A stretch of DNA of 64,000 nucleotides from Candidatus Coprovivens sp. (GTDB taxonomy: Bacteria; Bacillota_I; Bacilli_A; RF39; UBA660), in NCBI GenBank assembly GCA_051892935.1, contig JBJFGS010000024.1, positions 1 to 64,000 of the forward strand. The letters run 5' to 3'. The notes beneath the pieces were generated by a model that saw nothing but the letters and a program-made list of their open reading frames with translations, searched no databases and was not told where the DNA came from. Of this stretch, positions 3,009 through 52,176 are shown one piece after another. A program made the position numbers and the translations under genes. Positions within the stretch are counted from its first letter, which is position 1. Each line of letters starts with the position of its first letter.

Positions 3009-3055
3009 TATTTTACATAGGAAATAGTTTTTTATATAAATATTATTTTTATAAT

Positions 3056-3081
3056 AAAAAAGTATACGGATGTATACTTTT
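3056..3081. terminator. Bidirectional intrinsic terminator
   Basis: AAAAAGTATAC-GGAT-GTATACTTTTT. Confidence 0.75.
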
Positions 3082-4404: not shown

Positions 4405-4510
4405 AGATGTGTACCTCCATATCTTTCTACCCTCTATATTATTATACTTAAATTTGTCAAATTTGTATAGTAAATTTTAGATAAAAAAATGTTACATTAA
4501 ACATGTAACA

Positions 4511-4729
4511 TCAAATTCGAGCATTTACTTCATCAGTAATAATATTATTTGATAACCAATTTCCAATTTCCACACTATGTTCTAAATAATATTGATAATA
4601 AACTTCACTTTGGTTACCACCAAATAAAAAGTTATCATTGGTATTATTTGAATCGATATTTAATACTTTAAATATATCAATATTCTTTTCCCTTATATAT
4701 TCTTTTATCTGTGATATTGTTGGTTCCAT
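4511..4729 (-). CDS. Small hypothetical protein
   Basis: 72-aa ORF with a strong AGGAGG RBS. Confidence 0.6.
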   Translation of the reverse strand: MEPTISQIKEYIREKNIDIFKVLNIDSNNTNDNFLFGGNQSEVYYQYYLEHSVEIGNWLSNNIITDEVNARI

Positions 4730-37865: not shown

Positions 37866-39953
37866 TTATATTTTTTTTATACTTTTATGATTTTTTAATA
37901 GTTTTTTTATTCCATAATTTTTAGCAAAAGCTACAGTGATGAAATCTCCTTTTACTTCTATTACTACTCCTCTGCCATATATCATATGCATTATTATGTC
38001 TCCTTCTGCAAATTCAACTTCACCTTCATTGTGATATAATTCCTCACGATTTATTTGTTCTTCTGGAATCATTTTTTCATTTTCTATTTCTAGTAAGTCA
38101 GGGTCTATTTCTTTGATGAATCTACTTGGAGCATTCATGATGTCTTTTCCGTATAGCATTCTTCTTTTAGCATTTGTAATATATAATCTTTCTTTAGCTC
38201 TTGTAATACCAACATAGCATAGTCTTCTTTCTTCTTCAAGTCCTCCTTCTTCACAAAATGAATTTTGATGTGGAAAAATACCATCTTCCATTCCAACTAG
38301 GAAAACAATAGAAAATTCAAGTCCTTTAGCACTATGCATTGTCATTAATGTTACAACATCCTCATCTTCTTGGTGTTCTGTTATATCGGCAATTAAACTT
38401 ATTTCTTCTAGGAAGTCACTTAGAGATACTGAGCCTGTTCTTTCTTCGAAAGACTTAGTAATTGATTTAAATTCTTCTAGTACTTCTAGTCTTCTTTCGC
38501 TTTCTAGTGTTTTTTCGTTTTCGTATTCTTCTTTCATTCCTGTTTCTTCTAGTATTAAATCAATTAATTCGGTTAGGGATAAGTTTTCACTTTCTTTTGT
38601 TAAATGAATTATCAACTCTTTAAATAGTTGTTCTTTTCCTTTGGAAATAACTTGAAAAATAGATGTATTTTGTTCTTTGGCTTCTTGGTCTAATTTGGAT
38701 ATAGTTGCTTCACCAATACCACGTTTAGGAACATTTATTACTCTTCTTAAGCTTATTTCATCATCATTGTTAAGGATTAATCTTAAATAGCAGATTAAGT
38801 CTTTTATTTCTTTTCTATTATAGAAGTAGTAACTACCTACTACTTTATAAGGCATGTTTGATTTTAGAAACATTTCTTCTACGACACGAGATTGAGCATT
38901 GGTTCGGTATAGTACTGCTATATCACTTTTTTTATATCCTTCATCTAGTAATCTTTTTATTTCATCTAGTACAAGTTGTATTTCATGTTTTCCATCATAT
39001 GCTCTTAAGTACTTTGTTTTTTTTCCTTCACCAACGCTACTCCATAGAGTTTTTTCTTTACGTTCTTTATTATTTTTTATTACTGAATTAGCGGCATCTA
39101 AGATGTATTTTGTAGAACGATAGTTTTCTTCTAAAGGAATTACTTTAGCATTTTGGTAGTCTTTTTCAAAGTTTAGGATATTACGGAAGTTAGCACCTCT
39201 GAACATATATATTGATTGATCAGGGTCTCCTACTATAAAGATGTTTTTGTATTTTTTGGCTAGTAGTTTACTTAGCTTATATTGTACTTCATTAGTATCT
39301 TGATATTCATCTATCAAAATATATTTGAATCTGTCTTGGTACATTTCAAGAACATCTTGGTGTTCTTGAAATAGCTTTACTGGTAATCTAAGTAAATCAT
39401 CAAAATCTACTGAGTTATTTTTCTTTAATATTTCAATGTATTCATAGTATACTTTTTCCGCTACTTTATCTTGAGGTGTATTATAGAATTTATTTATATC
39501 ATCATTGGATAACATGTCATTTTTTATACTACTAATTTTATTTCTAATGTAGGCTGGAGCTGTTAACTTAGGATCTAATCCTAAGTCTTTCATTATTCTT
39601 TTTATTAAAGAAATGACATCATCGCTGTCTATTATAGAAAAGTTTCTATCTAATCCTAGTAGTGGAGCATTTTCTCTAATAATTCTTACTCCTAATGAGT
39701 GGAATGTACCAACAAACGCATTATTATCTGGTACTATGCTAGATAGTCTATCTCTCATTTCTTTAGCTGCTTTATTAGTAAATGTAATTGCTAGAATATT
39801 ATATGATGGTATACCGTTTTCTATTAAATTAGCTATTCTTGTTGTAAGTACTCTTGTTTTACCTGAACCTGCACCAGCAATAACAAGACATGGTCCATCT
39901 TTGTGAAGCACAGCTTCTTTTTGTTTTTCATTAAGTCCGTTTAATAAGTTCAT
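37866..39953 (-). CDS. pcrA: ATP-dependent DNA helicase PcrA/UvrD
   Basis: AGAGSGKT, DEYQD, GDPDQSIY, HSAKGLEF and EEERRL motifs. Lies upstream of ligA. Confidence 0.97.
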   Translation of the reverse strand: MNLLNGLNEKQKEAVLHKDGPCLVIAGAGSGKTRVLTTRIANLIENGIPSYNILAITFTNKAAKEMRDRLSSIVPDNNAFVGTFHSLGVRIIRENAPLLGLDRNFSIIDSDDVISLIKRIMKDLGLDPKLTAPAYIRNKISSIKNDMLSNDDINKFYNTPQDKVAEKVYYEYIEILKKNNSVDFDDLLRLPVKLFQEHQDVLEMYQDRFKYILIDEYQDTNEVQYKLSKLLAKKYKNIFIVGDPDQSIYMFRGANFRNILNFEKDYQNAKVIPLEENYRSTKYILDAANSVIKNNKERKEKTLWSSVGEGKKTKYLRAYDGKHEIQLVLDEIKRLLDEGYKKSDIAVLYRTNAQSRVVEEMFLKSNMPYKVVGSYYFYNRKEIKDLICYLRLILNNDDEISLRRVINVPKRGIGEATISKLDQEAKEQNTSIFQVISKGKEQLFKELIIHLTKESENLSLTELIDLILEETGMKEEYENEKTLESERRLEVLEEFKSITKSFEERTGSVSLSDFLEEISLIADITEHQEDEDVVTLMTMHSAKGLEFSIVFLVGMEDGIFPHQNSFCEEGGLEEERRLCYVGITRAKERLYITNAKRRMLYGKDIMNAPSRFIKEIDPDLLEIENEKMIPEEQINREELYHNEGEVEFAEGDIIMHMIYGRGVVIEVKGDFITVAFAKNYGIKKLLKNHKSIKKI

Positions 39954-40075
39954 GTTGTATCCTGCTTTCTTTTCATATTATATCATGATAAAGCTATATT
40001 TAGATATATATTTTTGTTATAAAAACGAACTTTTGTTTTTGCTTTGCGTAATAAAAAAAGTAGATTTCTCTACTT

Positions 40076-40363
40076 TTATAGATATTCCATTATTGCAACG
40101 TTTTTTTCTAGTTTAGCAACTAAGTCTTCTCGATCATATTTTGAAAATATTTCATCAAATGTTTCGTTATCTATTAAAAACATATTATAGAATTTAACAA
40201 AAGCTTCTACGTAATTAGTTACTCCTAATTCAAGTAGATACTTTATATTGTTAGTTACTACTTCTTCATTTTCATTTAGTTTTTCTACTGCAAGAGCAGG
40301 AATATTTTCACACATTAGATTGATAATTTCTTCATCAAACCCTAATTCTTTCAAATACATCAT
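40076..40363 (-). CDS. Small hypothetical protein (helical, mTERF-like motif)
   Basis: GGAGG RBS, overlaps the upstream stop codon. YLKELGF and IKYLLELGV repeats. Confidence 0.7.
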   Translation of the reverse strand: MMYLKELGFDEEIINLMCENIPALAVEKLNENEEVVTNNIKYLLELGVTNYVEAFVKFYNMFLIDNETFDEIFSKYDREDLVAKLEKNVAIMEYL

Positions 40364-42627
40364 AGTGTCATCCCTCCTAGTGTATTCGCTTTATTAAAAC
40401 CCAAGCAACTACCTACAACATTTCTTAATGTCTCTTCGTCTTGACGAAGGTTATATAATGCAGATGCTAGGATGATCTCTCTTTCAACACCTACAGTAGA
40501 TTGTTTACTTTGAGCTAGCGCATTTAAAACTATTATTAAGTTTCTTTCAAATTTATTCTTAGAAATACATATATTTCCTAGTTTATAAGTATATTTACCA
40601 ATTATTTCAGCGTGGTATTCTTGTTCCATAATTTGAACTAATCTATCAAATTCATCTTTCATTTCTGGTACAATTTCTTGACCAAGTACTGTTTTAATAT
40701 TTTTGTAGTTGTCTTCTAATGTATTTATTACTATTTCTGTGTAATCTTCATTACCGATTATACTTGGTAGCATACTATTTACTTCATTCATTGAAATTAT
40801 ACTTGGGAAGTTTTTAGTTGGACCATATTTTTTATAGAAATCTAAGTAGTATATTACATGTCTACAGAATTCTGTAGGGCCATTTCCTTCATATATTGGT
40901 TCTCCATGTTCTTCACAATATTTAACTCTCTTTATTAATTCGGTAGCACTAGTTCCAAGTATTTCTGGATTAGTCGCCATAATGTTTTCTAAGTCTGCCT
41001 CTATAATACTATCAATGTCTCTTAATAAATCTAAAGGTTTTTTCCAGAATACTGATAAAGCATATTTACCATTATTTTTAACAATTTTGATTAAATATTC
41101 TTTTAGTACTGATACATCTTCTTGAATATTGATATCTTCAAATAGTAGTAAATTATGGTTTCTTACTTCTTTTTCATCAAGTTCATAACCATTTGCCATT
41201 AATGTATCAATATTTTTTTCATATCTAGCAACATTTGCTTTTAATAAATATAATTGGCTTTCGTCAAATTTTTGATGAAGGCTTTCAATAGCAGATATTC
41301 TTTCTTCTAGTGTAGTTAGAGTTTCTCTTAAACCACTATTTGTATCTCTTATTAAGTCTTGAATTTTTAATTCAGATATACCTTTAGCTCTTAGTAGTGT
41401 TATTTTTTTATTTAATTCTTCATCAGCTAGATACATATGGTGTTTACGTAATTTATAAGCTTCTTCTTCTAAAGATATACTTCTTAAGATTTCATAGTTT
41501 TCTTCAATAACTCTTTTATCTACAGATGATAACATATTATATACTGTTTCAATATCTTCTGTATTATATTCCTTAAATTTATCAAGGTCTAATCCAATAC
41601 TTTCTAAGAATTGTAGAAATTCATCTTTTTCACTATTATTTTGAGTATTTAGTTCATATTCAGGAGTTGTTATAGTATCAGTTGTTGTTGCGGTATCTGA
41701 AGTTGTTTCTGGTTTAGTGTCAAATTCATCATTTTCCATGTTTAGTGCAGATAAATCTATAATTGTTGTTTTTTCATTATCACTATCTACTTTACTATAA
41801 ATGTCTTCTGTTACACTTTCGTTTTCTGATGGAGTTGGCTCTATTGTAATAACTGGTTCAATAATAGGAGTTGGTTCTTCTGGTTCAATGGCAAGTGTTG
41901 GCTCTTCCGGTTCAACATCTTCTGGAATAGGTTCTTCGTATTGTTGGTCTATTGGATTTACCAGTCCTTTTTCTAATCTTTCTTGGTAAGTTTGATTATA
42001 TTGATATAGCCCTTCATCTGGGAACATAATCAATTTAGTTAACTTACTTAATTCTGTTTCAGAGAAAATACCAAATGAAGAAAGCACTTTCTTAACATAA
42101 TGAGCTGTTAGTGAATCTCTTTCTATTTCATTTGGTGATAAACTTTGTTCTAATAAACTTACTAGTTGTTCTCTTTCCCATTCAGCTTTCTTTTGTTCTT
42201 CTTGTAGGCTAGCTAATTTAGTATCTAGTTCGTCTTTTCTTTTTTCAGCTTCTTCTATTTCTGTTTGGAAACCTTTTATTCGTTCATTTAGTTTTTCACA
42301 ATACTTTGGAGATCTGTCGCCTATAGCAGTCAGTAATGTTCCTATTTCTAGATTAATATCAATTTGACGAAGTGCTGAGAATGTATCGTCATTTAGGCCT
42401 TGAAAAGCTTCCTCAAAAGTTTGTTTTTGAGTTATAAATACTTCTAATGTACCTTCACTATCAATTTTATTTATCTCACTTTTAGTTCTATTATTCTCAG
42501 TTTCTTCAATGTCAGATTCCGTATTTCTTATTTCATTAGCTAATCCTTGTAAGATTACGTTATCATCACCTTTTAAATTATAAAGTCTATCTAATAATGT
42601 TTCTATATTTTGTGTTAATCCTGCCAC
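40360..42627 (-). CDS. Large hypothetical protein: N-terminal coiled coil, acidic Pro-rich linker, helical-repeat C-terminus
   Basis: Probable GTG start after GAGGTG. EPEEPT repeats. Confidence 0.8.
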   Translation of the reverse strand: MAGLTQNIETLLDRLYNLKGDDNVILQGLANEIRNTESDIEETENNRTKSEINKIDSEGTLEVFITQKQTFEEAFQGLNDDTFSALRQIDINLEIGTLLTAIGDRSPKYCEKLNERIKGFQTEIEEAEKRKDELDTKLASLQEEQKKAEWEREQLVSLLEQSLSPNEIERDSLTAHYVKKVLSSFGIFSETELSKLTKLIMFPDEGLYQYNQTYQERLEKGLVNPIDQQYEEPIPEDVEPEEPTLAIEPEEPTPIIEPVITIEPTPSENESVTEDIYSKVDSDNEKTTIIDLSALNMENDEFDTKPETTSDTATTTDTITTPEYELNTQNNSEKDEFLQFLESIGLDLDKFKEYNTEDIETVYNMLSSVDKRVIEENYEILRSISLEEEAYKLRKHHMYLADEELNKKITLLRAKGISELKIQDLIRDTNSGLRETLTTLEERISAIESLHQKFDESQLYLLKANVARYEKNIDTLMANGYELDEKEVRNHNLLLFEDINIQEDVSVLKEYLIKIVKNNGKYALSVFWKKPLDLLRDIDSIIEADLENIMATNPEILGTSATELIKRVKYCEEHGEPIYEGNGPTEFCRHVIYYLDFYKKYGPTKNFPSIISMNEVNSMLPSIIGNEDYTEIVINTLEDNYKNIKTVLGQEIVPEMKDEFDRLVQIMEQEYHAEIIGKYTYKLGNICISKNKFERNLIIVLNALAQSKQSTVGVEREIILASALYNLRQDEETLRNVVGSCLGFNKANTLGGMTL

Positions 42628-42776
42628 AATACACACCTCGCTTATTATGTATAAATTATAACAAAAAGAAAAGAAAGTGTAAATCTTTTTTAATATACTT
42701 GTTATTTCTTTATTTAAAGTAAGAGAACCAATAAATTGAATAATGAATATAATATTATGAAAGTAGGAGGGATTTT

Positions 42777-43376
42777 TTGAAAAAAATTATTATAATTATA
42801 GGATGTTTATTCTTAATAATATTTAGTATTTTTTCTTTTATTAATAAAGATAAAAGCGATGAATTAACTACTATTAAATTGGCTGAAGTAACTCATAGTA
42901 TATTTTATGCGCCGTTATATGTGGCATTGGAAAATGGTTATTTTAAAGAAGAAGGATTAAATATTGAATTAATATTAACTAGTGGAGCTGATAAAGTTAG
43001 TGCTGCTGTATTATCAAACACTGTAGATATAGGATTTGCTGGTCCAGAATCAGCAATATATGTATATAAGAACAAAGAAAAAGATTATCTTGTTACATTT
43101 GCAGGATTAACTAAAAGAGATGGACAATTTATTGTTGCTAGAGAAAAATATAAAAATTTTTCTGTTAATGATTTATATGGAAAAGAAATACTTGTTGGCC
43201 GTTCTTCTGGAATGCCTGCTCTAAACTTTTTTAATGGAGTTAAAAATGTTAGTGGAGATATTTCTAAAATAGATGTAAATACTAGTATAGATTTTGCTTC
43301 TTTATCGGGAACATTTATTGGTGGAGTTGGAGATTTTGTTAACTTATTTGATCTTAATGCAACTAAAAGAAAATAA
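42777..43376 (+). CDS. 5' part of an interrupted NMT1/SsuA/THI5-family (YtlA-like) ABC substrate-binding gene
   Basis: EVTHSIFYAPLYVA..GYFKEEGL motif. The native frame runs to codon 191 (NLF), then reads DLNATKRK* from element DNA. Confidence 0.9.
   Translation: MKKIIIIIGCLFLIIFSIFSFINKDKSDELTTIKLAEVTHSIFYAPLYVALENGYFKEEGLNIELILTSGADKVSAAVLSNTVDIGFAGPESAIYVYKNKEKDYLVTFAGLTKRDGQFIVAREKYKNFSVNDLYGKEILVGRSSGMPALNFFNGVKNVSGDISKIDVNTSIDFASLSGTFIGGVGDFVNLFDLNATKRK
43335..43367 (+). repeat. attL-like junction (core TGA 43349-43351)
   Basis: TGATCTTAATGCAACTAAA matches TGAACCTAATGCTACTAAA (46571-46589) at 16 of 19 positions. Confidence 0.85.
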
Positions 43377-43398
43377 AAAACTACTTAATAGTAGTTTT
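43377..43398. terminator. Bidirectional terminator at the left end of the element
   Basis: AAAACTACT-TAAT-AGTAGTTTT between the truncated SBP gene and the WXG100-like gene. Confidence 0.75.
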
Positions 43399-43723
43399 AT
43401 CCTTCATATTCTGATGTTAGTAAATCTTCAGCATTCTTTTTAATTGATGTATCAGCTTCTTCGTATTTTGTTGCTGTTGTTGATAAGAATGTTGCATACT
43501 TAGTAATTGAGTCATAAAAATCACCAAATTTTGCATATAAAGAATGGTATTTTTCTCTTAGCATATCTGCTGATTCACTTTTAAAAGAATCTTCTGTATT
43601 ACTCATTACTGTAGTAGCTTTATCTAAAGCCTGTTTCATAACATCAACTTTGTTTATCATAGCTTCAGATGCTTCTTTTAAACCTGTATATGATACTGAA
43701 ATATCCATTTGATTATTACTCAT
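43397..43723 (-). CDS. WXG100-like protein (central FKS variant)
   Basis: 108-aa helical hairpin with a C-terminal FL..TA.KYEEAD signature. Paired with a WXG100 gene. Confidence 0.7.
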   Translation of the reverse strand: MSNNQMDISVSYTGLKEASEAMINKVDVMKQALDKATTVMSNTEDSFKSESADMLREKYHSLYAKFGDFYDSITKYATFLSTTATKYEEADTSIKKNAEDLLTSEYEG

Positions 43724-43739
43724 TTATATTACTCCTATT

Positions 43740-44030
43740 CTATAATCTTCCAGCTGCACTAGAAATATCTGTTTGTAAATCATTTAAACTTCCTGATGAA
43801 TTATTTAAGAAAATAGCATAATTGTTTACTACTTGCCCTAAAGCAACTATTTCTTCTTTGTAACTGTTTATTTTATTAGCAAATGCAACATTATCTGTAC
43901 CTTGCCATGAAGTAGTTAGATTATCAACAATTTTATATAATTCTGTTACAGCATTATTGTACTCAACGGCTGCATCGTTAATCTCCTTAGCTTCGTATTT
44001 CATTTGATCTAAATTAGCTTGTAAGTTCAT
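43740..44030 (-). CDS. WXG100 family type VII secretion substrate
   Basis: 96-aa helical protein with a central WQG motif. AGGAGG RBS. Confidence 0.85.
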   Translation of the reverse strand: MNLQANLDQMKYEAKEINDAAVEYNNAVTELYKIVDNLTTSWQGTDNVAFANKINSYKEEIVALGQVVNNYAIFLNNSSGSLNDLQTDISSAAGRL

Positions 44031-44077
44031 ATTATCCTCCTATAATATAGTCTTTTCTTCTTTTATTTTACATTTTT

Positions 44078-44106
44078 ATTATATTTCATATTTTGTGCTT
44101 CTTCAA
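44078..44106 (-). promoter_or_regulatory. Sigma-A-like promoter of the WXG100 pair
   Basis: TTGAAG, 17 bp, TATAAT on the minus strand. Confidence 0.55.
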
Positions 44107-44144
44107 TAAAAGTTCCAAAAAATGTAAATTTATTTGACAAGATA

Positions 44145-44939
44145 TTATTTTTTTATACCAGAAGATTCCTTTAACCGCATTTGATTCCAAAGGGATTTAG
44201 GTAGTAATATAGCACTTAATTTAGCTGTATTTTGTTCTTCATTTATTTCAACTTTTATTATCTTAGAAAGACTACCACAATTTAAAATATATTCTAGTTG
44301 AGACTTAGAATAACTTAAAACATCTGAAAGAAGAATTGCTCCATCTTGGCATAGAGAAGGAACAAAATATTCTATTTCTATATTACAAGTATCATGCCAT
44401 TCTAAATCTTTTCTTCTAAAATAACTAGTATTTCTTAATAGAGATGTTGAAGTGAATCCTTGTTCATATATGTATTGTCCTTGCATTAATGATAGGTCTG
44501 ATATTGTAGTAATTCCATAATCATAAAAGGCTTTAATACTTATTCCTCTATATGATTTTATATTAATATTTAGTGAAGGAAACTTATCAATTATGTTTTT
44601 AATAGATTCTCCTAATTGTTGATAGTATTCTTTTTTCTCTGAAGTTAATAAACCATTTTCTTCGTAGTTCCATTTATTTCTCATAGTATTATTAATAAAT
44701 CTATATTCATAACCTGTATAAAAACGTAAATCACTTAGTTCTTTTAAGCTAAGACTGTCAATGTAGTCTCTGACTATTTCAAGAAATGTCTTGTTTATTT
44801 GTTCTACTGATGTAAATTCAACAAATTCTTCTTTTAATACTTGTTCTATATATGATGAGAGTTCTTGTACTTTTTCAGAACCTAAATTATTTAGTATATA
44901 TCTAGTAGAAAAGCTTGTACCTTTTTTATTTTTTATCAT
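44145..44939 (-). CDS. R-S-E class (VIP2/C3-like) ADP-ribosyltransferase
   Basis: FYTG.EYRFINNTMR, SYRG, GFTSTS and the catalytic loop QLE. Confidence 0.85.
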   Translation of the reverse strand: MIKNKKGTSFSTRYILNNLGSEKVQELSSYIEQVLKEEFVEFTSVEQINKTFLEIVRDYIDSLSLKELSDLRFYTGYEYRFINNTMRNKWNYEENGLLTSEKKEYYQQLGESIKNIIDKFPSLNINIKSYRGISIKAFYDYGITTISDLSLMQGQYIYEQGFTSTSLLRNTSYFRRKDLEWHDTCNIEIEYFVPSLCQDGAILLSDVLSYSKSQLEYILNCGSLSKIIKVEINEEQNTAKLSAILLPKSLWNQMRLKESSGIKK

Positions 44940-44958
44940 ATAATCACCTACTATAAAT

Positions 44959-44987
44959 AGTATATCAATTATTATTTATTTGTTGAA
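44959..44987 (-). promoter_or_regulatory. Sigma-A-like extended -10 promoter of the ART gene
   Basis: TTCAAC, 17 bp, TATACT, preceded by TGn. Confidence 0.45.
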
Positions 44988-44995
44988 ATAGTATG

Positions 44996-46384
44996 TTACT
45001 CTGATTCACTTTTTATTTTTCTTAAAGTGTATTTTATTTGATATTTTTTATTATGATTATCATATCTATTAAATATGAATATTTTGTTTTCTATTTGGTT
45101 TAGTAAACTATAATCTATATTTAAATATATAGTTAAATAGGCTGTTGATAATTCTTTAGTTAATAACACTTTATCTAGTATTAAAGGAATAATATTAACG
45201 TTAGGAATAGATATTTTTCTTTTATATAATGAAGATAATAGTTGAGATATCTGAGAATAGTTTATATCTATTTTTTTTATTATATATTGAAAAATTTTAT
45301 TTATTTCTGATTCTCTTATGTTTGTATAGCATTTGTTTCCTAATAGATGTTCTTTACATATCCAGGTTGTGTCTTTAGAGTTTTTTAATTGCTTTCTTCG
45401 ATGAAGATAGCAATTATGTTTAGTACATATTAATTTTTGAGTATATTGGTATTGTTTATGATAATTTGTATTGTCTTTTGTTTTTTTTAAGAGTTTATTA
45501 TTAGTTTCGTTCCAAAGAGATTCTTCTATAATAGGTGGAATGTGTTTATAGTCTTTATATATTTTCCATTTATTGGGATTTATTTTTTTTACTTTTTTTG
45601 TCATATAATCTTCTGTGTATGTTTTATTTCCACAGTAATATCCTTTATATTTAGGGTTTTTTAACATTCTAAGGATAGTTGAAGAACACCATTTTTTATT
45701 ATAGTTAGTAGTTATTCCTTGATTATTAAGATAGTCGCATATATATGGAATTGATTTATTTTCTATTGTGTACATAGTAAAGATTTTTCTTACAATAGTA
45801 GATTGTTTTTTGTTAATAGTCATTTTATTTTTGTTTTTTTTATATCCATATAATTTGTTATTTCCAAGGATTATTCCTTTTTGTATTGACATATTTACAC
45901 CGAATTTTACTCTTTCTGATAAACGGCGGATTTCATCTTGTGCAAGGCTTGACATTATTGTGAGTCTTAACTCACTATCTGAATATATTGTATTAATGTT
46001 ATCGTTTGTAAATAAAACTGCTACTCCATTGTTTAATAATTCTCTAGTATATTTAAGGCTATCTAAGGTATTTCTTGAAAAACGAGATATTTCTTTTGTA
46101 ATAATTAAATCAAATAAGTCTTTTTTTGAATCTGATATCATTTTTAGAAAGTTTGCTCTTTTTATTGATGTTGTACCTGATATGCCTTTGTCAATATAGC
46201 CTTTAACATATGTCCAATTAGGATTATTTTTTATTATAGATTGAAAATAATCTTCTTGGTTGGATAAAGATGTTTGTTGATCTTCATGATCTGTAGATAT
46301 TCTTCCGTAATATGTTACTCTTAAATTAAGATTGGATATTGGAATTCCTTGATTAAGTTGTTCTCTTATTTTATATAGATTCAT
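44996..46384 (-). CDS. Large serine recombinase (SpoIVCA/CisA-like)
   Basis: YGRIST (catalytic Ser), DKGISGT, SRFSRN, recombinase domain (LKNPKYKG) and Zn-ribbon residues (CTKH...C...C). Confidence 0.95.
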   Translation of the reverse strand: MNLYKIREQLNQGIPISNLNLRVTYYGRISTDHEDQQTSLSNQEDYFQSIIKNNPNWTYVKGYIDKGISGTTSIKRANFLKMISDSKKDLFDLIITKEISRFSRNTLDSLKYTRELLNNGVAVLFTNDNINTIYSDSELRLTIMSSLAQDEIRRLSERVKFGVNMSIQKGIILGNNKLYGYKKNKNKMTINKKQSTIVRKIFTMYTIENKSIPYICDYLNNQGITTNYNKKWCSSTILRMLKNPKYKGYYCGNKTYTEDYMTKKVKKINPNKWKIYKDYKHIPPIIEESLWNETNNKLLKKTKDNTNYHKQYQYTQKLICTKHNCYLHRRKQLKNSKDTTWICKEHLLGNKCYTNIRESEINKIFQYIIKKIDINYSQISQLLSSLYKRKISIPNVNIIPLILDKVLLTKELSTAYLTIYLNIDYSLLNQIENKIFIFNRYDNHNKKYQIKYTLRKIKSESE

Positions 46385-46524
46385 TATATTATTGTTAATT
46401 TATTTAAAAGATAGTTTTGGATATTTAAATATTCTTGATATGTTATTTCTTCTTTTTTATATAATTCTTCGTTTATAAGAAGAGATATTTTTATAATTAG
46501 TTGTTCTTTTTTTATAATTAACAC
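46384..46524 (-). CDS. Unannotated SHOCT-like microprotein (about 43-46 aa) coupled to the recombinase
   Basis: AAAGGAG RBS and LYKKEEITYQEYLNIQNYLL motif. The stop overlaps the recombinase start (TAATG). Start is GTG at 46524, or ATA at 46515 which has better RBS spacing. Confidence 0.7.
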   Translation of the reverse strand: MLIIKKEQLIIKISLLINEELYKKEEITYQEYLNIQNYLLNKLTII

Positions 46525-46561
46525 TCCTTTATTTTAATAATATTATGTAATTTATTTTTTA

Positions 46562-46589
46562 TGCATTAAGTGAACCTAATGCTACTAAA
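46562..46589 (+). repeat. attR-like junction (core TGA 46571-46573)
   Basis: The TGCATTAAG arm is the reverse complement of CTTAATGCA at the left junction. Confidence 0.85.
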
Positions 46590-46979
46590 TTAGAAAAAGA
46601 AGGATATGGATATGTTGTAGGAAGTGTTGGAGAATTATCTGGAGAAATGCCTTATACAGCTTTTTATGCTAGAAAAAGTTATATAAACAATAATGAAGAT
46701 ATTATTAAAGGTTTTAATAATGCTATTAATAAAGGTTTAGATTTTGTTAGTAATAATTCTGATAAAGAAGTTGCTGAAGTTATTTTAAAACAGTTTCCTG
46801 ATACTTCATTAAATGATGTAGAAGCAATTGTTAAAAGATATAGGGATGCTGATAGTTGGCTTTTAAATACTACTATTACAGAGGAATCTTATAAAAATTT
46901 AGAAGATATAATGATTGATAATAATTTATTGGATAGTTATGTTTCATTTAGTGATTTAGTAATAGATTTTAATGAGTAA
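46572..46979 (+). CDS. 3' part of the interrupted ABC substrate-binding gene
   Basis: Open frame from GAA at 46572 (EPNATKLEKEGYGYVVGSVGELSGEMPYT...), 25 codons upstream of the ORF-track Met. Confidence 0.9.
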   Translation, partial: EPNATKLEKEGYGYVVGSVGELSGEMPYTAFYARKSYINNNEDIIKGFNNAINKGLDFVSNNSDKEVAEVILKQFPDTSLNDVEAIVKRYRDADSWLLNTTITEESYKNLEDIMIDNNLLDSYVSFSDLVIDFNE

Positions 46980-47721
46980 AATATTAGAAGTTAAAAATAT
47001 TGAAAAAAAGTTTAATACTATAAATGGTGAGATAGAAGCTATAAATAATATATCTTTAAATATTAATGAAGGAGAATTTGTTGCAATAGTTGGGACATCC
47101 GGTTGTGGTAAAAGTACTTTACTATCTATTATGGCTGGTTTAGAAAAATTTAGTGCGGGAGAGATTAATTATGAAATAGATAATCCAGTAATTGGATATA
47201 TGTTGCAAGAAGATGCTTTATTTGAACATCTAAAAATAAAGGACAATATATTATTAGGATTAAGAATTCAAAATAAATTAACTGAAGATAATAAAAAATA
47301 TGCTTTTGATTTATTAAAAAAGTATAACTTAGATAAGTTTAAAAACAAAAGACCAAGTGAACTTTCAGGAGGAATGAAACAAAGAGTTGCTTTAATAAGA
47401 ACATTAGCTATAAGACCAGATATTCTATTTTTAGATGAACCTTTTTCGGCATTAGATTTTAGTACTAGATTGTCAGTTTGTGATGATGTTTATAAAATAA
47501 TAAAAGATACTGGTATTACAACAATTATGGTAACGCACGATATTTCAGAAGCTGTAAGTGTAGCTGATAAAGTAATAGTTTTAAGTAAGGGTCCTTCTGT
47601 AGTGAAGAATATCTATAGTATACAATTGGACAATAAGGGATTACCTACACAAAATAGAAATGATACTAAGTTTAATTATTATAATGAATTAATATGGAAA
47701 GATTTAGATAACAATGAGTAA
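46972..47721 (+). CDS. NitT/TauT-type ABC transporter ATP-binding protein (YtlC-like)
   Basis: GTSGCGKST, LSGGMKQR and LDEPFSALD motifs. Confidence 0.93.
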   Translation: MSKILEVKNIEKKFNTINGEIEAINNISLNINEGEFVAIVGTSGCGKSTLLSIMAGLEKFSAGEINYEIDNPVIGYMLQEDALFEHLKIKDNILLGLRIQNKLTEDNKKYAFDLLKKYNLDKFKNKRPSELSGGMKQRVALIRTLAIRPDILFLDEPFSALDFSTRLSVCDDVYKIIKDTGITTIMVTHDISEAVSVADKVIVLSKGPSVVKNIYSIQLDNKGLPTQNRNDTKFNYYNELIWKDLDNNE

Positions 47722-48499
47722 TGAACAAAGAAAGTTTATATTAAAGTATAAACTAAATAAATTTTTTATCATAATTACTCAAGTTTTAATTGTATTATCA
47801 TTTTTTCTTACGTGGGAGATTCTTAGTAGAAAAGGTATTATTAATTCTTTTATATTTAGTAGTCCTACTAAAGTAGTAAATACTATATGTGATTTATTTG
47901 TTAATAATAACTTATTAAGGCATATTTGGGTGAGTGTTTATGAGACTTTAATTGCTTTTGGTATAGGATTGTTACTTAGTGTAAGTATATCGATTATTCT
48001 TTATATGTTTAATAATTTATATAAAGTTTTAGATCCTTTCTTAACTTGTTTAAATTCTCTACCAAAAGTTGCTTTGGGACCGATGATTATTATTATAGCT
48101 GGAGCTAATATAAAAAGTATTATAGTTATGGCAGTTTTAATAAATGTTATTGTTAGTACAATAGTTATTACTAATGGATTTTATAATACTGATAAAATTA
48201 AACTAAAATTAATGAAATCTTTTAAAGCTAGTAAGTTTCAGATACTTAAATATTTGGTAATTCCTAGCAATTATAAAACTATTATTAGTTCGTTTAAACT
48301 AAGTATAAGTATGAGTATGATTGGAGTTATTACAGGAGAGTTTTTAGTTAGTCAAGAAGGTTTGGGTTATCTTATAATATATGGTACACAAGTATTTAAT
48401 TTAGATTTAGTAATAAGTGGTATTATACTTTTATTGATTATATCTTATATACTTTATAAGGTTGTAGAATATATAGAGAAAATATTATTAAGTTTATAA
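47714..48499 (+). CDS. NitT/TauT-type ABC transporter permease (YtlD-like)
   Basis: LNSLPKVALGP and GEFLVSQEGLGYLI motifs. Multi-TM. Confidence 0.92.
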   Translation: MSNEQRKFILKYKLNKFFIIITQVLIVLSFFLTWEILSRKGIINSFIFSSPTKVVNTICDLFVNNNLLRHIWVSVYETLIAFGIGLLLSVSISIILYMFNNLYKVLDPFLTCLNSLPKVALGPMIIIIAGANIKSIIVMAVLINVIVSTIVITNGFYNTDKIKLKLMKSFKASKFQILKYLVIPSNYKTIISSFKLSISMSMIGVITGEFLVSQEGLGYLIIYGTQVFNLDLVISGIILLLIISYILYKVVEYIEKILLSL

Positions 48500-48593
48500 A
48501 GAAAAGAATTAATCTTTTCTTTTTATCTAATAAGTTTTAATTTATAATATTATTATAAATATTTTTGGTATAATTCTTATAGTAGGTGATGTT

Positions 48594-49712
48594 ATGAGTA
48601 CAGAAAAAAATAAAAAAGCAAAAAATAAGACAGATAAAGCTTTAGATAATAAATGTCCTGGATGTGGAGCTCCGATACATTTTAATCCAACAGAAGGCAA
48701 GTGGAAATGTGAGTATTGTAATAGTATTTTTACATTAGAAGAAATGCAAAAATATAATAATGCTAGTAGTAAAGAGAATAATGTTGATGAAGTTATAGAA
48801 GAAGTTAAAGATGATGATACTACTTATGTTACATATAAATGTAAGAATTGTGGTGCTTCCGTTGTAGCTGATGAACAAACGGCTGCTACTTTCTGTGTAT
48901 ATTGTGGAAATACTGCTATTTTAAAGGATAAGCTTTCTGGTAGTTTTAAACCTGATTATATTATTCCTTTTAAAATAGAAAAAGATGCTGCTATAAAAGC
49001 TTTTGAGGAATTATCAAAAGGTAGACCTTTTATGCCTAAGGATTTTAATAGTAAATCTAATATAGAAAAAATAAGAGGAGTATATATTCCTTTTTGGTTA
49101 TATAATTTTATTGTAGATGGTGATCTTAATTTTAACGGAGAAAAAACGCATACGACATCTACGCCTAGTGCAACTTATATAAAGACAGATCACTATAAAT
49201 TATATAGAACTGCTACAATGAATTTTATAAAGATTCCGGTAGATGGATCAACAAGATTTGATGATGATATTATGAATTCTATTGAACCTTTTAATTACGA
49301 TGAATTAGTTCCATATAACCATGCTTATCTTTCTGGCTTTTTAGCAGAAAAATATGATTTAGATTCTGATGAATCAAGTAAGGATGCTCAAGAAAGAGCA
49401 TTAGAATCTTCTAGAGCAAAGATATCCAATGATGTTGCTAGTGAGTTTGCTTCCTATTATGTTACAGAAGATTCTTTAAAAGCAGAAGTTACTGAAAAAA
49501 AATATGCATTACTGCCTGTATGGATGGTCAATGTAAAATATCAAGATAAATATTATTTGTTTGCTATGAATGGTCAAACAGGAGAATTTATAGGAAATAT
49601 TCCATTAGATAAAAATAAAGTTATATTATGGTCTGTTATTTCGTTTATAGTAGTTTTTATAATTGTTGGAGTAATAAGTTTTATCTTGTATTTAATGGGA
49701 GGTAATGTATGA
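48594..49712 (+). CDS. Zinc-ribbon membrane protein (YdjG-like)
   Basis: Four CxxC pairs, YIPFW, LLPVW, NGQTG and a C-terminal TM. Confidence 0.8.
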   Translation: MSTEKNKKAKNKTDKALDNKCPGCGAPIHFNPTEGKWKCEYCNSIFTLEEMQKYNNASSKENNVDEVIEEVKDDDTTYVTYKCKNCGASVVADEQTAATFCVYCGNTAILKDKLSGSFKPDYIIPFKIEKDAAIKAFEELSKGRPFMPKDFNSKSNIEKIRGVYIPFWLYNFIVDGDLNFNGEKTHTTSTPSATYIKTDHYKLYRTATMNFIKIPVDGSTRFDDDIMNSIEPFNYDELVPYNHAYLSGFLAEKYDLDSDESSKDAQERALESSRAKISNDVASEFASYYVTEDSLKAEVTEKKYALLPVWMVNVKYQDKYYLFAMNGQTGEFIGNIPLDKNKVILWSVISFIVVFIIVGVISFILYLMGGNV

Positions 49713-50617
49713 AAAAGTTTATACTAGGTATATTGGTATTTTTTGTAGGAATAAATATTGGAAATGCAGCTTTAGTTTATGATAGAAATGAACTTGATAA
49801 CTATGGTGTTAATAAAGATATAGAGATTACTGATAGAAATAAAAATGATATTTTAAATACCAAAGCGGTTGATTCTTCTGAAAAAGTATATGACTTTGCT
49901 AATATTTTAAGTGATAATGAAGAAGAAAATCTAAAAAAGATAGCTTTAGATTTTTATGATGAAACCGGTTTTGATTTAGTTATTTTGACTGATAGTTTTT
50001 ATAATTATGATTATGAAGATAATTATGAATATGTTCAAAACTTTTATGATTATAATGACTTTGGTATAGATGATGAATATTATAGCGGAGTTGTTATTTT
50101 AAGAAATAATTATCCTGATTATCCTTTTTATAGTATTAGGTTATTTGGTGAAGCTCAATTATATTTTAGTGGTAAGCGTACAGAGAAAATACTTGATGAT
50201 ACATCTTATTTAATAGCTAATAAGGATTATAGTTCAGCTTTTATTGAAGTTGTTGATTATTTATTGGATTATTATGATGATGGGATTTCTCCTGAATTTA
50301 AAGGTTATGAAATAGATAAAAATGGAATGTTAGTAGCACCATATAAATTTCCTTTTTTAATAGCTATTATAGTTTCTTTAGTGTTTACATTATTTTATAT
50401 TGGTCATTATGTAAATAAGAATAAGATGGTTTATAAAGCCAGATTAGCTAATGATTATCTTGATAAAGAAAGTGTTACCTATAAAGTTAAAGAAAATAAG
50501 TTTTTGCATACTACTACAAGAACTATACCAAAATCTACTGATAGTAGTGGTGGTTCACATGGAAGCTTTAGTGGTTCTTCTGGAAGAGGAAGTAGTGGCG
50601 GTGGACGTAGAGTATAA
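49709..50617 (+). CDS. TPM-domain membrane protein (YdjH-like)
   Basis: VYDFANILS..EE motif, TM and a Gly/Ser-rich C-terminal tail. Confidence 0.85.
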   Translation: MKKFILGILVFFVGINIGNAALVYDRNELDNYGVNKDIEITDRNKNDILNTKAVDSSEKVYDFANILSDNEEENLKKIALDFYDETGFDLVILTDSFYNYDYEDNYEYVQNFYDYNDFGIDDEYYSGVVILRNNYPDYPFYSIRLFGEAQLYFSGKRTEKILDDTSYLIANKDYSSAFIEVVDYLLDYYDDGISPEFKGYEIDKNGMLVAPYKFPFLIAIIVSLVFTLFYIGHYVNKNKMVYKARLANDYLDKESVTYKVKENKFLHTTTRTIPKSTDSSGGSHGSFSGSSGRGSSGGGRRV

Positions 50618-50640
50618 AAATAGAAGGTATTTATTACCTT

Positions 50641-52176
50641 CTATTTTGTTTTTTCTATTCTAATTAGTTTTTCTTTTTTTGTGGGTTTCTTTGATTCTTC
50701 TATTTTCTTTTTTGTAGGTCGATTAATTTTTTTTATATCTTGTGGATTTAAATTTAATTTAATGCTCCCCTTTTGTTCCTCTGTTTTAGTACTTTTCTTA
50801 GGTTGGCGATTAATCTTTTTTATACTATTTGGATTAAGTTTTAATTGTTCTTTTTTCTTTTTTTCTTTAGAAAGAGCTTCTTTTCTTAACTTCTTTATAT
50901 CTTCACCAATTGGTGGTTCAATTTTTAAACGAGTATTAGTTTGAGGTATATTTACATCTAAACTAATAAGGTTTTCTTTTTTAGGAGTTTTTTTAGGAGA
51001 TGTTTTGCTACGCTTTTTATTTTTAGTATCTTCTATTTTTATAACCTTAATTTTATTACCATTTAGAAAATTATCTACTTCGATAACTTCGTTTTGAATT
51101 TTTTCTACTGGTTGGATACTATCAATATCCTTAATCATTTTATCTATTTTTTGAATATTATTATCATATTCTTTTATTTTTATATTTAAATCATCTGTAT
51201 CTAGTACTTCATATTCTTCATTAACTACTAAGTGTTTAGGTTTTATTTTGGGAAGTTCTATTTCAGATTTATTTGTTTTTTCAGGAATTATTTTTTTAGT
51301 ATCTACTTTAGTAGGTATTGGGACTTCTGGTTCATCAGTCTTTTCCAATTCAATTTCTTTTGATATAGGAAGATTCTTTTTGTATTTATTTTCTTTCACT
51401 TTAAGAATTGTTTCGCTATATTTTTCCAAGAAACCATCTGGTTCTTCTGAACTTCTAATATAAGAATCTTTTCTTGATTCGTTTTTTTGTAACGTATCTT
51501 TAATTTTTTCTTTTAATAAGGTTTGTTTTTCATAATCTATTTCATCATTAGTATTAGGTTTCTCTTTTGTTTCGACAACTTTATTTACTCTTTTTCTTAA
51601 ATCTAATAAATCTATTAATTTAAATATTTCTTTTAATAAATATATACCAATTGGTATTATTAATATAAACAACCAGCCTTTTTGATTAGCTATTAAAAAT
51701 TGAATATATCCTACTTTTGGAATGGTTATTATTTCTTTCCCAATGATGTTATTAAATGTTACATATACACTATCTGGTTCTGTATTATTATCTCCTTGGG
51801 TTAAGAATTCATAAGTACCATCTGGTAGCTGTTCTTTAGCAATAACACGATGTGTTATTGTCATTCCTTCGGAAGTTGCAGCAGTAGATTTATAAGTTAT
51901 TATATCGCCAATCTCTATTTCATCAGGATGTTCTGGTTTAATATTAATAACTACATCATAAACATTTATGTTTGGAGTCATACTAGGAGATACTATAGTA
52001 TATATAGAAATGCGTGGTTTATAATTTGGGTTATTAGCATTTATTTGAGATGCTATTATGTAATATACTAAAAAAGCAACAACAAGACATACAAAAGAAA
52101 TCACTAGGTAGTATAGTAATTTAGATATTATTGTGAATACTTTTAATAATAATTCTTTTGTATTTTTTTGTTTCAC
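50641..52176 (-). CDS. Signal peptidase I, SipW type, with a long basic C-terminal extension
   Basis: VSPSMTP (Ser), ITHRV (His), TQGDNN..PD and IPKVG motifs. Confidence 0.85.
   Translation of the reverse strand: MKQKNTKELLLKVFTIISKLLYYLVISFVCLVVAFLVYYIIASQINANNPNYKPRISIYTIVSPSMTPNINVYDVVINIKPEHPDEIEIGDIITYKSTAATSEGMTITHRVIAKEQLPDGTYEFLTQGDNNTEPDSVYVTFNNIIGKEIITIPKVGYIQFLIANQKGWLFILIIPIGIYLLKEIFKLIDLLDLRKRVNKVVETKEKPNTNDEIDYEKQTLLKEKIKDTLQKNESRKDSYIRSSEEPDGFLEKYSETILKVKENKYKKNLPISKEIELEKTDEPEVPIPTKVDTKKIIPEKTNKSEIELPKIKPKHLVVNEEYEVLDTDDLNIKIKEYDNNIQKIDKMIKDIDSIQPVEKIQNEVIEVDNFLNGNKIKVIKIEDTKNKKRSKTSPKKTPKKENLISLDVNIPQTNTRLKIEPPIGEDIKKLRKEALSKEKKKKEQLKLNPNSIKKINRQPKKSTKTEEQKGSIKLNLNPQDIKKINRPTKKKIEESKKPTKKEKLIRIEKTK

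Follow-up and report, generated by a model that had tools for sequence, protein, structure and literature searches.

The islet described here, which interrupts a transporter gene in the window (the whole 64,000-nucleotide stretch of DNA analysed), is best explained as a non-phage gene-intervening element of the skin/gin class that a large serine recombinase (LSR) mobilizes. No such interrupted target was met in the literature searched, and an earlier sequence-only reading of this DNA had likewise not recognized it among known interrupted loci. Comparative sequence evidence indicates that recurrent precise excision very probably rebuilds a gene that is still in use, and somewhat favours a tie between this excision and sporulation.

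The host, a gut member of the Bacilli, is represented by a metagenome-assembled genome with an estimated completeness of 92% and contamination of 3%. Its sole NMT1/SsuA-type (NMT1/YtlA-type) ABC binding-protein gene is interrupted between codons 191 and 192 (Table 1). In alignment, the N half corresponds to residues 1–191 and the C half to residues 192–326 of intact 326-aa homologues, with no residue lost or doubled, and the spliced protein is collinear with them. The N-half ORF (42777–43376, plus strand) matches NMT1 families up to residue 191; its frame extends for eight codons inside the islet (DLNATKRK) to a stop at 43374–43376, and the C-half frame lacks a start codon from the junction as far as 46647. 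The sequence-only reading had described two gene halves, 3,222 bp apart with an LSR between them, followed by ATPase and permease genes without lesions; coordinates and content were confirmed, and both downstream frames are open. The permease matches SaoP, TauC and SsuC-type families of NCBIfam, each below its cut-off. The leader is kept 5' of the gene in most of 20 aligned species and, with its AC spacing and a following ORF, is the single such site genome-wide.

Table 1. Features of the interrupted transporter locus and its islet (positions in the window)
Feature	Position	Strand	Basis or remark
Leader, GAATATAATA..ATGAAAGTAGGAGGG, AC 16–17 nt further upstream	42745..42776	+	5' of binding-protein gene
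Binding-protein gene, 5' part, codons 1–191	42777..43349	+	Pfam NMT1 2.3e-13, NMT1_2 3.6e-08
attL: host half-site ...GTTAACTTATTT, core GA (43350-51), element half-site TCTTAATGCAAC...	43330..43372	.	Junction alignment
Intervening islet, 3,222 bp, 24.0% G+C	43350..46571	.	Genes all on minus strand
9-bp A/U-rich hairpin	43377..43398	.	-8.4 kcal/mol, z -4.06
WXG100/ESAT-6-like protein, 108 aa	43397..43723	-	Pfam WXG100 26.7 bits, slightly below cut-off 27.3
WXG100 protein, 96 aa	43740..44030	-	Pfam WXG100 33.1 bits, cut-off 27.3
ADP-ribosyltransferase (exoenzyme type), 264 aa	44145..44939	-	Pfam PF03496 1.7e-12, 47.5 bits; phrog_3895
Large serine recombinase (LSR), 462 aa	44996..46384	-	Pfam Resolvase 5.9e-27, Recombinase 3.8e-21
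Conserved 46-aa ORF	46384..46524	-	Stop overlaps LSR start; directly upstream of LSR in 7/8 elements
attR: element half-site ...ATGCATTAAGT, core GA (46572-73), host half-site ACCTAATGC...	46550..46592	.	Junction alignment
Binding-protein gene, 3' part, codons 192–326	46572..46979	+	Alignment to intact homologues
ABC ATPase, same operon	46972..47721	+	Pfam ABC_tran 3.8e-31; frame open
ABC permease, same operon	47714..48499	+	Pfam BPD_transp_1 2.2e-17; frame open

The att sites were delimited by a junction alignment of eight split and 12 intact genes. Crossover had earlier been placed in a shared TGA; the core is instead the dinucleotide GA, since the base preceding it at attR is A in four of the seven other split species (G003, G004, G005 and G007). 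The element ends carry 9-bp arms around GA, complementary at eight of nine positions and lying inside an imperfect inverted repeat, I3 (43353–43380 with 46543–46570; 28 nt, 75% complementary). Joined, these ends form a near-palindromic attP, and attR is one mismatch from the idealized attP palindrome. The hairpin at 43377–43398, previously read as a terminator that blocks read-through, is real; on one side of it ends the shortened N-half frame, on the other the WXG100-like gene that runs towards it. The hairpin may act as a weak two-way terminator; the proposed block is weakly founded, as the U-run falls within the stem and a terminator scan of 42500–47100 returned no sites. The programmed-rearrangement reading is partly supported: the collinear halves, the recurring site and the low dN/dS, three checks proposed with it, came out in its favour.

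The islet showed neither phage structural genes nor conjugation genes. Four of its minus-strand genes, encoding the ADP-ribosyltransferase, the two WXG100-like proteins and the 46-aa ORF, had been absent from the sequence-only reading. The 108-aa WXG100-like protein scores 60.2 bits against NCBIfam ESAT6_2 (cut-off 100) and is 89% identical to the copy in G004, and the 96-aa protein is 94% identical to its G004 copy. In the ADP-ribosyltransferase, the Arg, S-T-S and [QE]xE motif columns are retained in all five aligned copies. Across elements, the cargo includes ADP-ribosyltransferase, WXG100, TIR-SH3, nuclease and exporter types.

Pfam, PHROG (phrog_95 integrase, 8.5e-88) and fold all identify the islet recombinase as a serine integrase. 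Its AlphaFold2 model (mean pLDDT 85.6) has as its closest match 9dxd_A, a serine integrase–RDF complex (E 4e-18); 9dxd is presumably the SP-beta integrase of PMC11722253. The LSR C-terminal region is unusually short, with 110 aa after the zinc-ribbon Cys, where 67 relatives have a median of 198. Integration may be impaired, because the coiled coil is needed for integration in the integrases studied: LI integrase without it is reported to lose directional control (PMC5499577), and phiC31 integrase to be inactive (PMC10754689).

The 46-aa ORF, which has no family in Pfam, NCBIfam or PHROG, is a candidate recombination directionality factor or cofactor. Complex modelling supports binding of its product to the LSR, with a score of 0.70 against a best of 0.00 among three controls. 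Of 80 solved complexes, 58 reached this mark, as did two of 110 mismatched pairs, counts that hold only roughly because the complex models were fed our own alignments. Runs agreed in at least 78% of contacts, with a pLDDT of at least 78 for the 46-aa partner. The predicted contacts are with LSR residues 373–402, 422–427 and 459–461. The modelled interface lies among the C-terminal helices past the zinc ribbon, the region reported as the binding site of known directionality factors (PMC12286644, PMC10747680).

The insertion is found well beyond one strain. Among 27 genomes sampled from the genus, 21 carry the transporter gene, which is intact in 12, split at codon 191/192 in eight and in three pieces in one (G042), where this codon is occupied too; the site is filled in nine of the 21 gene-bearing species. 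In G042 a second LSR, unrelated (27% identical), makes a further break in the gene, near codon 145. Elements measure approximately 3.0, 3.2, 4.4, 6.0, 8.5, 16.1, 16.8 and 20.3 kb, and one more spans two contigs; relatives, including other genera, thus share the insertion site with varying cargo. Of the 120 database clusters that match the N half best, 63 end directly past ..VNLF. Half of this gene also flanks 26 of 80 loci encoding LSR relatives, some of them in other genera where the protein is just 45–68% identical. Recurrence of the junction is beyond chance, given its presence in eight species, in G042 and in those 63 clusters. Nor is it an assembly artefact, since contigs from three other studies span the junctions: one of 19.6 kb covers the entire stretch, where 5,201 bases show 159 differences, and those of two further studies span attL or attR.

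The LSR tree mirrors the host-locus clades (G000,G004) and (G010,(G012,G005)), with G014, and for these pairs LSR dS (0.62–1.12) is comparable to host dS (0.42–0.83), where values of 0.5–1.1 are close to saturation and the estimator, NG86, is crude. The LSR and host-gene trees largely agree. The dN/dS of the binding-protein gene is as low in six both-split pairs (0.07–0.25) as in five intact pairs (0.03–0.29), and that of the adjoining ATPase and permease genes is 0.07–0.22. Over the same distance, neutral drift would be expected to produce some 22–29 nonsense changes (P of none ≤3e-10, a rough value); the gene pieces of nine species contain no stop codons or frameshifts. In the first 25 codons past the junction, pN/pS is 0.13 among the eight split genes. 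This points to an element that is long resident and a gene that is still in use, in which case precise excision must recur. Mapped onto the tree of the host locus, the split state requires five changes, at least three of them forced by well-supported branches; the site has therefore been repeatedly gained or lost.

The gene content of this metagenome-assembled genome, which includes Spo0A_C, SpoIVA and a sigma-K-like gene, suggests that the host sporulates. SpoIVA scores above cut-off in 19 of the 21 genus genomes that carry the transporter gene but in none of the six that lack it, and three of 16 genomes from other families carry the gene (E ≤ 1e-40), each being SpoIVA-positive, although outside the genus it is missing from two of five SpoIVA-positive genomes; such counts overstate the evidence because the genomes are kin. 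No sigma-E- or sigma-K-type promoter was assignable to the LSR operon or the transporter gene. The sigma-K -10 consensus begins with C, and this leading C is missing from the conserved -10-like box, AATATAATA. In the LSR tree, the clade at this gene comprises 36 rows (SH-aLRT 100), and its sister clades have members that adjoin a 3' fragment of spoIVA (16 loci) or of spoVD (15 loci), the position being constant in either case. Interruption of spoIVA and spoVD at fixed codons supports sporulation timing. Table 2 of PMC3416734 gives the regulator 'K' for B. subtilis ytlA, ytlC and ytlD, putative counterparts of the present transporter genes, among 147 core sporulation genes, in agreement with the sigma-K regulon assignment given in the sequence-only reading; what YtlACD does is entered as unknown in PMC11466899.

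We propose that the LSR, with the 46-aa protein encoded just upstream, would recombine attL with attR, so that the islet leaves as a circle and the 326-aa frame is rebuilt, to be read together with the ATPase and permease genes. Lineages that retain the element would excise it regularly, most likely in the terminal mother cell during sporulation; were excision confined to that cell, the spore chromosome would keep the element.

Large serine integrases also occupy non-sporulation genes, such as that of the Listeria comK phage, and excision could instead be a reversible switch outside sporulation ('active lysogeny'), in which the islet is excised in part of the vegetative population or on a signal, turning the transporter on, and is then re-integrated by the same LSR or lost from those cells. 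Everything that speaks for recurrent precise excision is equally compatible with such a switch, as are the occurrence of both forms in one lineage (the shortened N half P0127 is 100% identical to the intact P0026 over their common part, which fits a polymorphic, mobile element), the three or more state changes on the host tree and the C. botulinum yin element, found excised at all time points (PMC10747680). However, the islet gene content provides no replication genes for the excised circle, so that vegetative cells would in most cases be cured of it; re-integration may be hampered by the short LSR C-terminal region; and the sister clades in spoIVA and spoVD, together with the co-occurrence of the transporter gene with SpoIVA, argue for sporulation. 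We regard the switch as conceivable but doubtful.

An ordinary selfish integrative island seems unlikely, and less probable than the switch. It would use a conserved gene stretch as attB and knock the gene out; occupied alleles would be young, and the halves would look healthy because species hold both empty and occupied alleles, with selection acting on the empty ones. In its favour are the strict site specificity of large serine recombinases and the conservation of the attB stretch among intact genes. The variable, selfish-looking cargo is typical of such islands, the state has changed several times, and P0127/P0026, as well as run X2, where a diverged intact allele lies next to an occupied one, show both forms. 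Against it, the LSR and the host gene have equal dS, and within two clades their trees coincide. Only occupied alleles were found for this species (P0121 and P0122, with seven member sequences, and the junction contigs of three studies), its closest intact allele among the best 120 clusters being 84% identical, and only one of the 63 shortened forms has an intact counterpart at least 95% identical, with the best 120 in each list considered. The second, unrelated LSR element in the same gene (G042) also counts against it, and sister clades in the essential sporulation genes spoIVA and spoVD are hard to square with plain knock-outs. A decaying pseudogene, interrupted once, or an assembly error might be suspected in a metagenome-assembled bin with some estimated contamination, but this is highly improbable, being already contradicted by the junction contigs from other studies and by the dN/dS of lesion-free pieces in nine species.

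Among known systems, the islet resembles gin, inserted in gerE of Bacillus cereus ATCC 10987 (PMC5595907). Both are non-phage islands inside a short coding stretch with a serine recombinase (GirC in gin), have an inverted repeat around a short common core and recur across several strains or species, their gene content varying. The small factor GirX, required for gin excision, would have its counterpart in the candidate 46-aa ORF. Unlike the islet, which has 3.2 kb, one recombinase and an ABC binding-protein gene as target, gin comprises 31 genes and three recombinases; its excision in sporulation was shown experimentally, whereas that of the islet is proposed from sequence. The skin elements in sigK, excised by SpoIVCA in B. 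subtilis and by CD1231 with the directionality factor CD1234 in C. difficile, differ greatly in size between species and have only the recombinase in common (bioRxiv 10.1101/2022.02.25.481979); in C. difficile the small factor controls cell-type-specific excision (PMC5025042). In contrast, the islet targets a transporter component rather than a regulator, the islet elements are not prophage-like, the LSR C-terminal region is short and the candidate cofactor is co-transcribed with the LSR.

SP-beta in spsM (SprA with SprB) and yin in yabG likewise combine a large serine integrase with a small directionality factor and rebuild a sigma-K-dependent mother-cell gene (PMC4191935, PMC10747680); the closest fold of the islet LSR, noted above, is a likeness to these systems, which, unlike the islet, are active or defective prophages. 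In heterocysts, developmental excision of the fdxN element by the large serine recombinase XisF restores a gene once the cell has differentiated terminally, in a different phylum and developmental programme; the islet LSR scores 68.5 bits against NCBIfam recomb_XisF, far below the cut-off of 375. Its best NCBIfam names are CcrC (87.8 bits) and CcrB (80.7 bits), far below cut-offs of 900. SCC elements resemble the islet in their small cargo cassettes, large serine recombinases and fixed chromosomal site, but integrate at the end of the target gene without splitting it, whereas the islet splits its target. If the proposed excision is correct, the rebuilding known for a few other sporulation genes would here extend to a transporter gene.

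The window carries an ABC importer operon encoding an NMT1/SsuA-type binding protein, an ATPase and a permease, and the binding-protein gene lies in two pieces separated by an islet (see the table of features). Aligned with intact 326-aa homologues, the pieces correspond to residues 1–191 and 192–326, with none lost or repeated; across the insertion point, locus L008 of a sister species (G006), where the gene is intact, has ...GEFVNLF EPNATKLEKEGYGYV.... The islet is 3,222 bp long with 24% G+C, and the minus strand carries every islet gene. As in gene-intervening elements, the frame is restored when the pieces are joined exactly at a short common core, and the element has its own large serine recombinase (LSR) gene at its edge. 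The sequence-only reading had described a gene split by an LSR islet, and this is confirmed by the coordinates, by the collinear halves and by recurrence in relatives. The binding protein has weak NCBIfam matches to SsuA and SaoX.

Features of the split transporter locus and its surroundings (positions in the window)
Feature	Position	Strand	Remarks
Rfam RF03531 (n00280, 'Clostridioides difficile sRNA included into helicase gene')	38165-38264	-	68 bits, gathering 65.2, E 3.9e-10
758-aa acidic repeat-rich protein	40360-42636	-	no Pfam family; divergent, upstream of transporter gene
Conserved leader	42745-42776		5' of binding-protein gene
Binding-protein gene, 5' piece	42777-43349	+	homology to residues 1-191
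Hairpin	43377-43398		z -4.06
ADP-ribosyltransferase	44145-44939	-	47.5 bits
LSR, 462 aa	44996-46384	-	
46-aa ORF	46384-46524	-	stop overlapping LSR start
Two WXG100-like genes in islet		-	one above cut-off, other just below
Binding-protein gene, 3' piece	46572-46979	+	homology to residues 192-326
ATPase gene	46972-47721	+	
Permease gene	47714-48499	+	

The acidic protein encoded upstream is likewise found at this place in G006 (L008). The idea of a riboswitch (TPP or other) 5' of the transporter gene was rejected, as positions 38000–52000 gave no Rfam match except the unrelated sRNA RF03531.

A prophage or phage switch would be expected to bring structural, replication or lysis genes, and none of these was found in the islet. 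A PHROGs comparison of the five islet proteins found no phage function beyond the integrase and the ADP-ribosyltransferase, which is classed there as a 'moron', and a Pfam search of 20 cargo proteins from the larger elements found no phage family. The WXG100-like genes near a putative toxin gene might represent a type VII secretion (T7SS) toxin module. WXG100 matches number ten in the whole genome of the window (five above cut-off), and YukC/EssB of the T7SS core has no match in that genome, which is 92% complete.

The islet family is spread far wider than a single strain. In a genus survey of 27 species genomes, the binding-protein gene is intact in 12, split at codon 191/192 in eight, in three pieces in one (G042) and not found in six. 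A related LSR, 50–80% identical, adjoins the 3' half in every split gene (9/9 elements of the genus). Element length varies between about 3 and 20 kb; 6/8 encode an ADP-ribosyltransferase, and the other cargo varies, including permeases, a PfkB kinase, an aminotransferase-acetyltransferase, an ABC-2 exporter, HTH proteins, a PD-(D/E)XK nuclease, TIR-SH3 proteins and an SPFH protein. Three other studies supplied contigs that span attL or attR (the left and right islet junctions) of the window's species, and one of these contigs, 19.6 kb long, covers the islet with both junctions and differs at 159 of 5,201 bases.

The same site is occupied beyond the genus. In the protein database, 63 of the best 120 clusters matching the N half stop a few residues past ..VNLF. 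A scan for recombinase relatives, using one genome per species, found 80 loci, and half of a binding-protein gene, broken at the same codon, flanks 26 of them; in some of these hosts the binding protein is only 45–68% identical to that of the window. A second sub-clade (L185–L202, L209, L215, L218) occupies this codon in other genera with the recombinase at the opposite (left) end, in elements of 3.4–5.6 kb with inverted att arms of about 25 bp; none of these elements showed a 46-aa ORF homologue.

In G042, the relative with three gene pieces, a 2.95-kb element of the present family splits the gene at codon 191 (L182: 1077–1217 / 1218–4172 / 4173–4577), and an unrelated LSR (27% identical) splits it a further time at about codon 145 (L178: binding-protein piece 1461–1907; LSR 2531–3475, minus strand). 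All three pieces are open and 73–79% identical to the window's protein. Different elements likewise hit one gene repeatedly in sigK and gerE. The window's own genome contains two further LSR genes (C31:121530–122498, L003; C2:16082–17074, L004), 29–31% identical to that of the islet, with open frames of 649 and 552 aa.

Trees of the host locus and of the recombinase have two groupings in common, (G000,G004) and (G010,(G012,G005)) with G014 beside the latter. Within these clades dS is 0.62–1.12 for the recombinase and equivalent, at 0.42–0.83, for the host genes. The simplest reading of this concordance is that the elements were already resident when these species diverged. Over this time the gene appears to have been maintained. 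With dS near saturation and a simple estimator, dN/dS is 0.07–0.25 for both gene pieces, compared with 0.03–0.29 for intact pairs and 0.07–0.22 for the neighbouring ATPase and permease genes. By a rough count, neutral drift over the same distance would produce 22–29 stop codons, and none is seen in the pieces of nine species. The first 25 codons past the junction have a pN/pS of 0.13, though they have no start codon of their own. Low dN/dS and the constraint on a stretch that cannot be started separately indicate that the full-length protein is still under selection, and such selection in element-carrying lineages requires regular precise excision.

The split state needs at least three changes on the host tree. 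A pair of database proteins, a 198-aa N half (P0127) and an intact protein of 329 aa (P0026), have N parts that are 100% identical; occupied and empty sites coexist in this lineage. Together, the state changes and this pair imply that the site turns over. Recurrent precise excision that rebuilds a gene still in use is probably the correct account of the locus.

The predicted excision products were also sought in existing assemblies. Logan contigs of four of the 24 listed runs contain neither a 43349–46572 join in the strain's letters nor a circle joint; since such contigs drop rare forms, the missing junctions say nothing about absence. One contig of run X2 (depth 2.7) joins 43349 to 46593 and was rejected as an excision product, with 21 differing letters between; it is read as coming from a diverged strain or species in the sample whose gene is intact. 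The palindrome predicted for attP, the joint of the excised circle, has no match in viral contigs and occurs at no fewer than 119 loci in metagenome contigs, where none of the matches listed encodes a recombinase relative. This 18-mer is too unspecific for the attP scans to be informative.

Alignment of the junctions of eight split and 12 intact genes places the crossover in a GA dinucleotide, with intact genes reading ...TTATTT|GA|ACCTAATGC. A shared TGA had been proposed from the sequence alone; the base before GA at attR differs in 4/7 other split species, so the core must be shortened to GA. When the element ends are joined, 9-bp arms surround this dinucleotide, 8/9 complementary, inside a 28-nt imperfect inverted repeat, giving an attP of inverted half-sites with a central dinucleotide common to attB, the restored empty site. 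Serine-integrase attP sites are described in this form, as inverted half-sites around a core, in the accessible text of PMC5595907.

The recombinase has a catalytic domain (Pfam Resolvase, 5.9e-27) and a Recombinase domain (Pfam, 3.8e-21, residues 193–300), and its AlphaFold2 model (mean pLDDT 85.6) shows a helix at 137–169 that leads into a mixed domain. Among 67 aligned relatives R28 and S30 do not vary, and the zinc-ribbon columns C320 and C343 vary little or not at all; judged by its position, S30 is the likely nucleophile. A sequence search of solved structures matched the catalytic domain alone. The best fold matches are full-length serine integrases with DNA and directionality factor (9dxd_A, E 4e-18), to which Foldseek aligns about 498 columns. 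The tail past the zinc ribbon, modelled at pLDDT 57–71, measures 110 aa; the median in the 67 relatives is 198. The recombinases of the four smallest aligned elements of the genus (439–462 aa) all lack about 80 residues here, which are retained by those of the larger genus elements (539–554 aa) and by most relatives. The absent residues match the coiled-coil region, and after residue 390 the model is too uncertain to reveal any remnant. Removal of the coiled coil abolishes directional control in LI integrase and activity in phiC31 integrase, according to the portions available of PMC5499577 and PMC10754689, respectively.

The 46-aa ORF is kept in 7/8 elements and matched no known family. A complex model of its product with the LSR scored 0.70, against 0.00 for the best of three controls; in a benchmark, the mark was reached by 58/80 solved complexes and 2/110 mismatched pairs, counts that apply only approximately because the complex model was built on separately prepared alignments. 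At least 78% of contacts agree between runs, with a partner pLDDT of at least 78. This modelling supports binding of the 46-aa protein to the LSR. The predicted contacts are on LSR residues 373–402, 422–427 and 459–461, in the helices past the zinc ribbon; the excerpts available of PMC12286644 and PMC10747680 report that directionality factors bind in this region. Because the contacts fall at this position, the ORF is read as a putative directionality factor or obligatory cofactor for the attL x attR reaction.

A recombinase tree of 81 rows, built by a quick search, groups the LSRs at the transporter gene in one clade (36 rows, SH-aLRT 100; 27 with the gene in the flank and nine with flanks unknown), which is sister to a group holding two other target-specific clades. 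One of these is associated with spoIVA: 16 of its 22 rows, with recombinases 40–49% identical to that of the window, abut a spoIVA fragment (L219, L220, L222–L225, L227, L229–L231, L234, L236, L238, L240, L252, L262). In 14 of the 16 loci the last ~94 codons (TIGR02836 399–492) begin just past the recombinase stop codon; L227 has the 3' fragment elsewhere in the locus and L222 only the 5' part. At L238 the 5' part is also present, about 5.1 kb away. Two of the strains are cultured, Pseudoflavonifractor capillosus An827 (L225) and P. intestinihominis CLA-AP-H29 (L240), which makes programmed excision directly testable at the bench.

In the other clade, 15 of 17 rows abut the 3' part of spoVD directly past the recombinase stop codon (L226, L233, L237, L239, L241–L244, L246, L249, L250, L256, L257, L259, L260), with recombinases 45–48% identical to the window's. 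The fragment matches TIGR02214 409–634 at 243.7 bits, against 83 for the next family, and contains Transpeptidase and PASTA domains. This suggests that spoVD may also be split in uncultured Bacilli. Both spoIVA and spoVD are mother-cell genes.

Gene content suggests endospore formation: the window's genome encodes Spo0A_C (106.7 bits), SpoIVA (344 bits) and a sigma-K-like protein (283 bits; cut-off 298.65), and SpoIVA is present in 17/19 related genomes. Within the genus, SpoIVA is above cut-off in 19/21 genomes with the transporter gene and in 0/6 without it, counts that are not independent because the genomes are related; two of the six have completeness values of 90% and 96%. A further 16 genomes, from other families, include three with the gene, all of them SpoIVA-positive; two have SpoIVA without the gene and 11 have neither. 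In addition, ytlA, ytlC and ytlD, possible counterparts of the split operon's genes, are assigned regulator 'K' among 147 core sporulation genes, a set defined as those retained in spore-forming Bacilli and Clostridia and absent from non-spore-formers (PMC3416734, available sections).

The sigma-70 promoter scan gave 42 sites, no more than expected by chance (37.2 ± 5.7 in shuffles), and CATA boxes 5' of the 46-aa ORF are within chance for DNA of 22–25% G+C. The leader upstream of the binding-protein gene, GAATATAATA..ATGAAAGTAGGAGGG, is conserved in relatives, with AC 16–17 nt before the box; a genome-wide search matched this locus alone, so the motif defines no regulon. From these three sources no mother-cell promoter could be assigned to the recombinase operon or to the transporter gene. 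The hairpin inside the islet, proposed earlier as a terminator, is real, but a terminator scan returned no sites, this hairpin included, and it is a weak terminator candidate. The proposal of a skin-like excision programmed in sporulation stands in part: co-occurrence with SpoIVA, the spoIVA and spoVD sister clades, the regulator 'K' assignment of ytlA/C/D and the second split of the gene by an unrelated LSR in G042 favour it. On balance, a tie between recurrent excision and sporulation is slightly favoured.

The closest described system is gin in gerE, likewise a non-phage element; it pairs a serine recombinase with a small factor, and an inverted repeat encloses its short core (PMC5595907, text accessible in part). 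Other elements of the same kind are skin, SP-beta, vfbin, vrin and yin, as covered in the available parts of PMC4191935, PMC10747680 and bioRxiv 10.1101/2022.02.25.481979. The islet is unusual in its short-tailed recombinase, co-transcribed candidate cofactor and toxin-type cargo. In a search of the main texts of open-access papers, no description of spoIVA, spoVD or a binding-protein gene being split came to light.

A joint reading of these results is offered tentatively, as a possibility somewhat short of even: gut Firmicutes could have adopted one LSR clade for developmental switching, with an excision-only short-tailed branch and an islet that harbours cargo. The targets may be a ytlA-like transporter gene, spoIVA and spoVD, each at a fixed codon, across many uncultured species and some cultured ones. 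In the window's branch, most of the coiled coil would have been lost and the LSR would be made together with its 46-aa partner; for these reasons it may catalyse excision alone, in the terminal mother cell. The germ line would keep the islet, in which toxin and defence cargo is sheltered.

Recombinase-cofactor pairs with short, well-defined att sites may serve as new orthogonal integrase tools. Intervening elements removed in sporulation have so far been found in a handful of genes, sigK, spsM, spoVFB, spoVR, gerE and yabG. If the sporulation link is true, a transporter gene would join these targets, and such an element would have been kept over long evolutionary times in whole genera of uncultured gut Bacilli. 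The sister clades would then point to two more split genes, spoIVA and spoVD, which are central to the formation of the spore coat and cortex.
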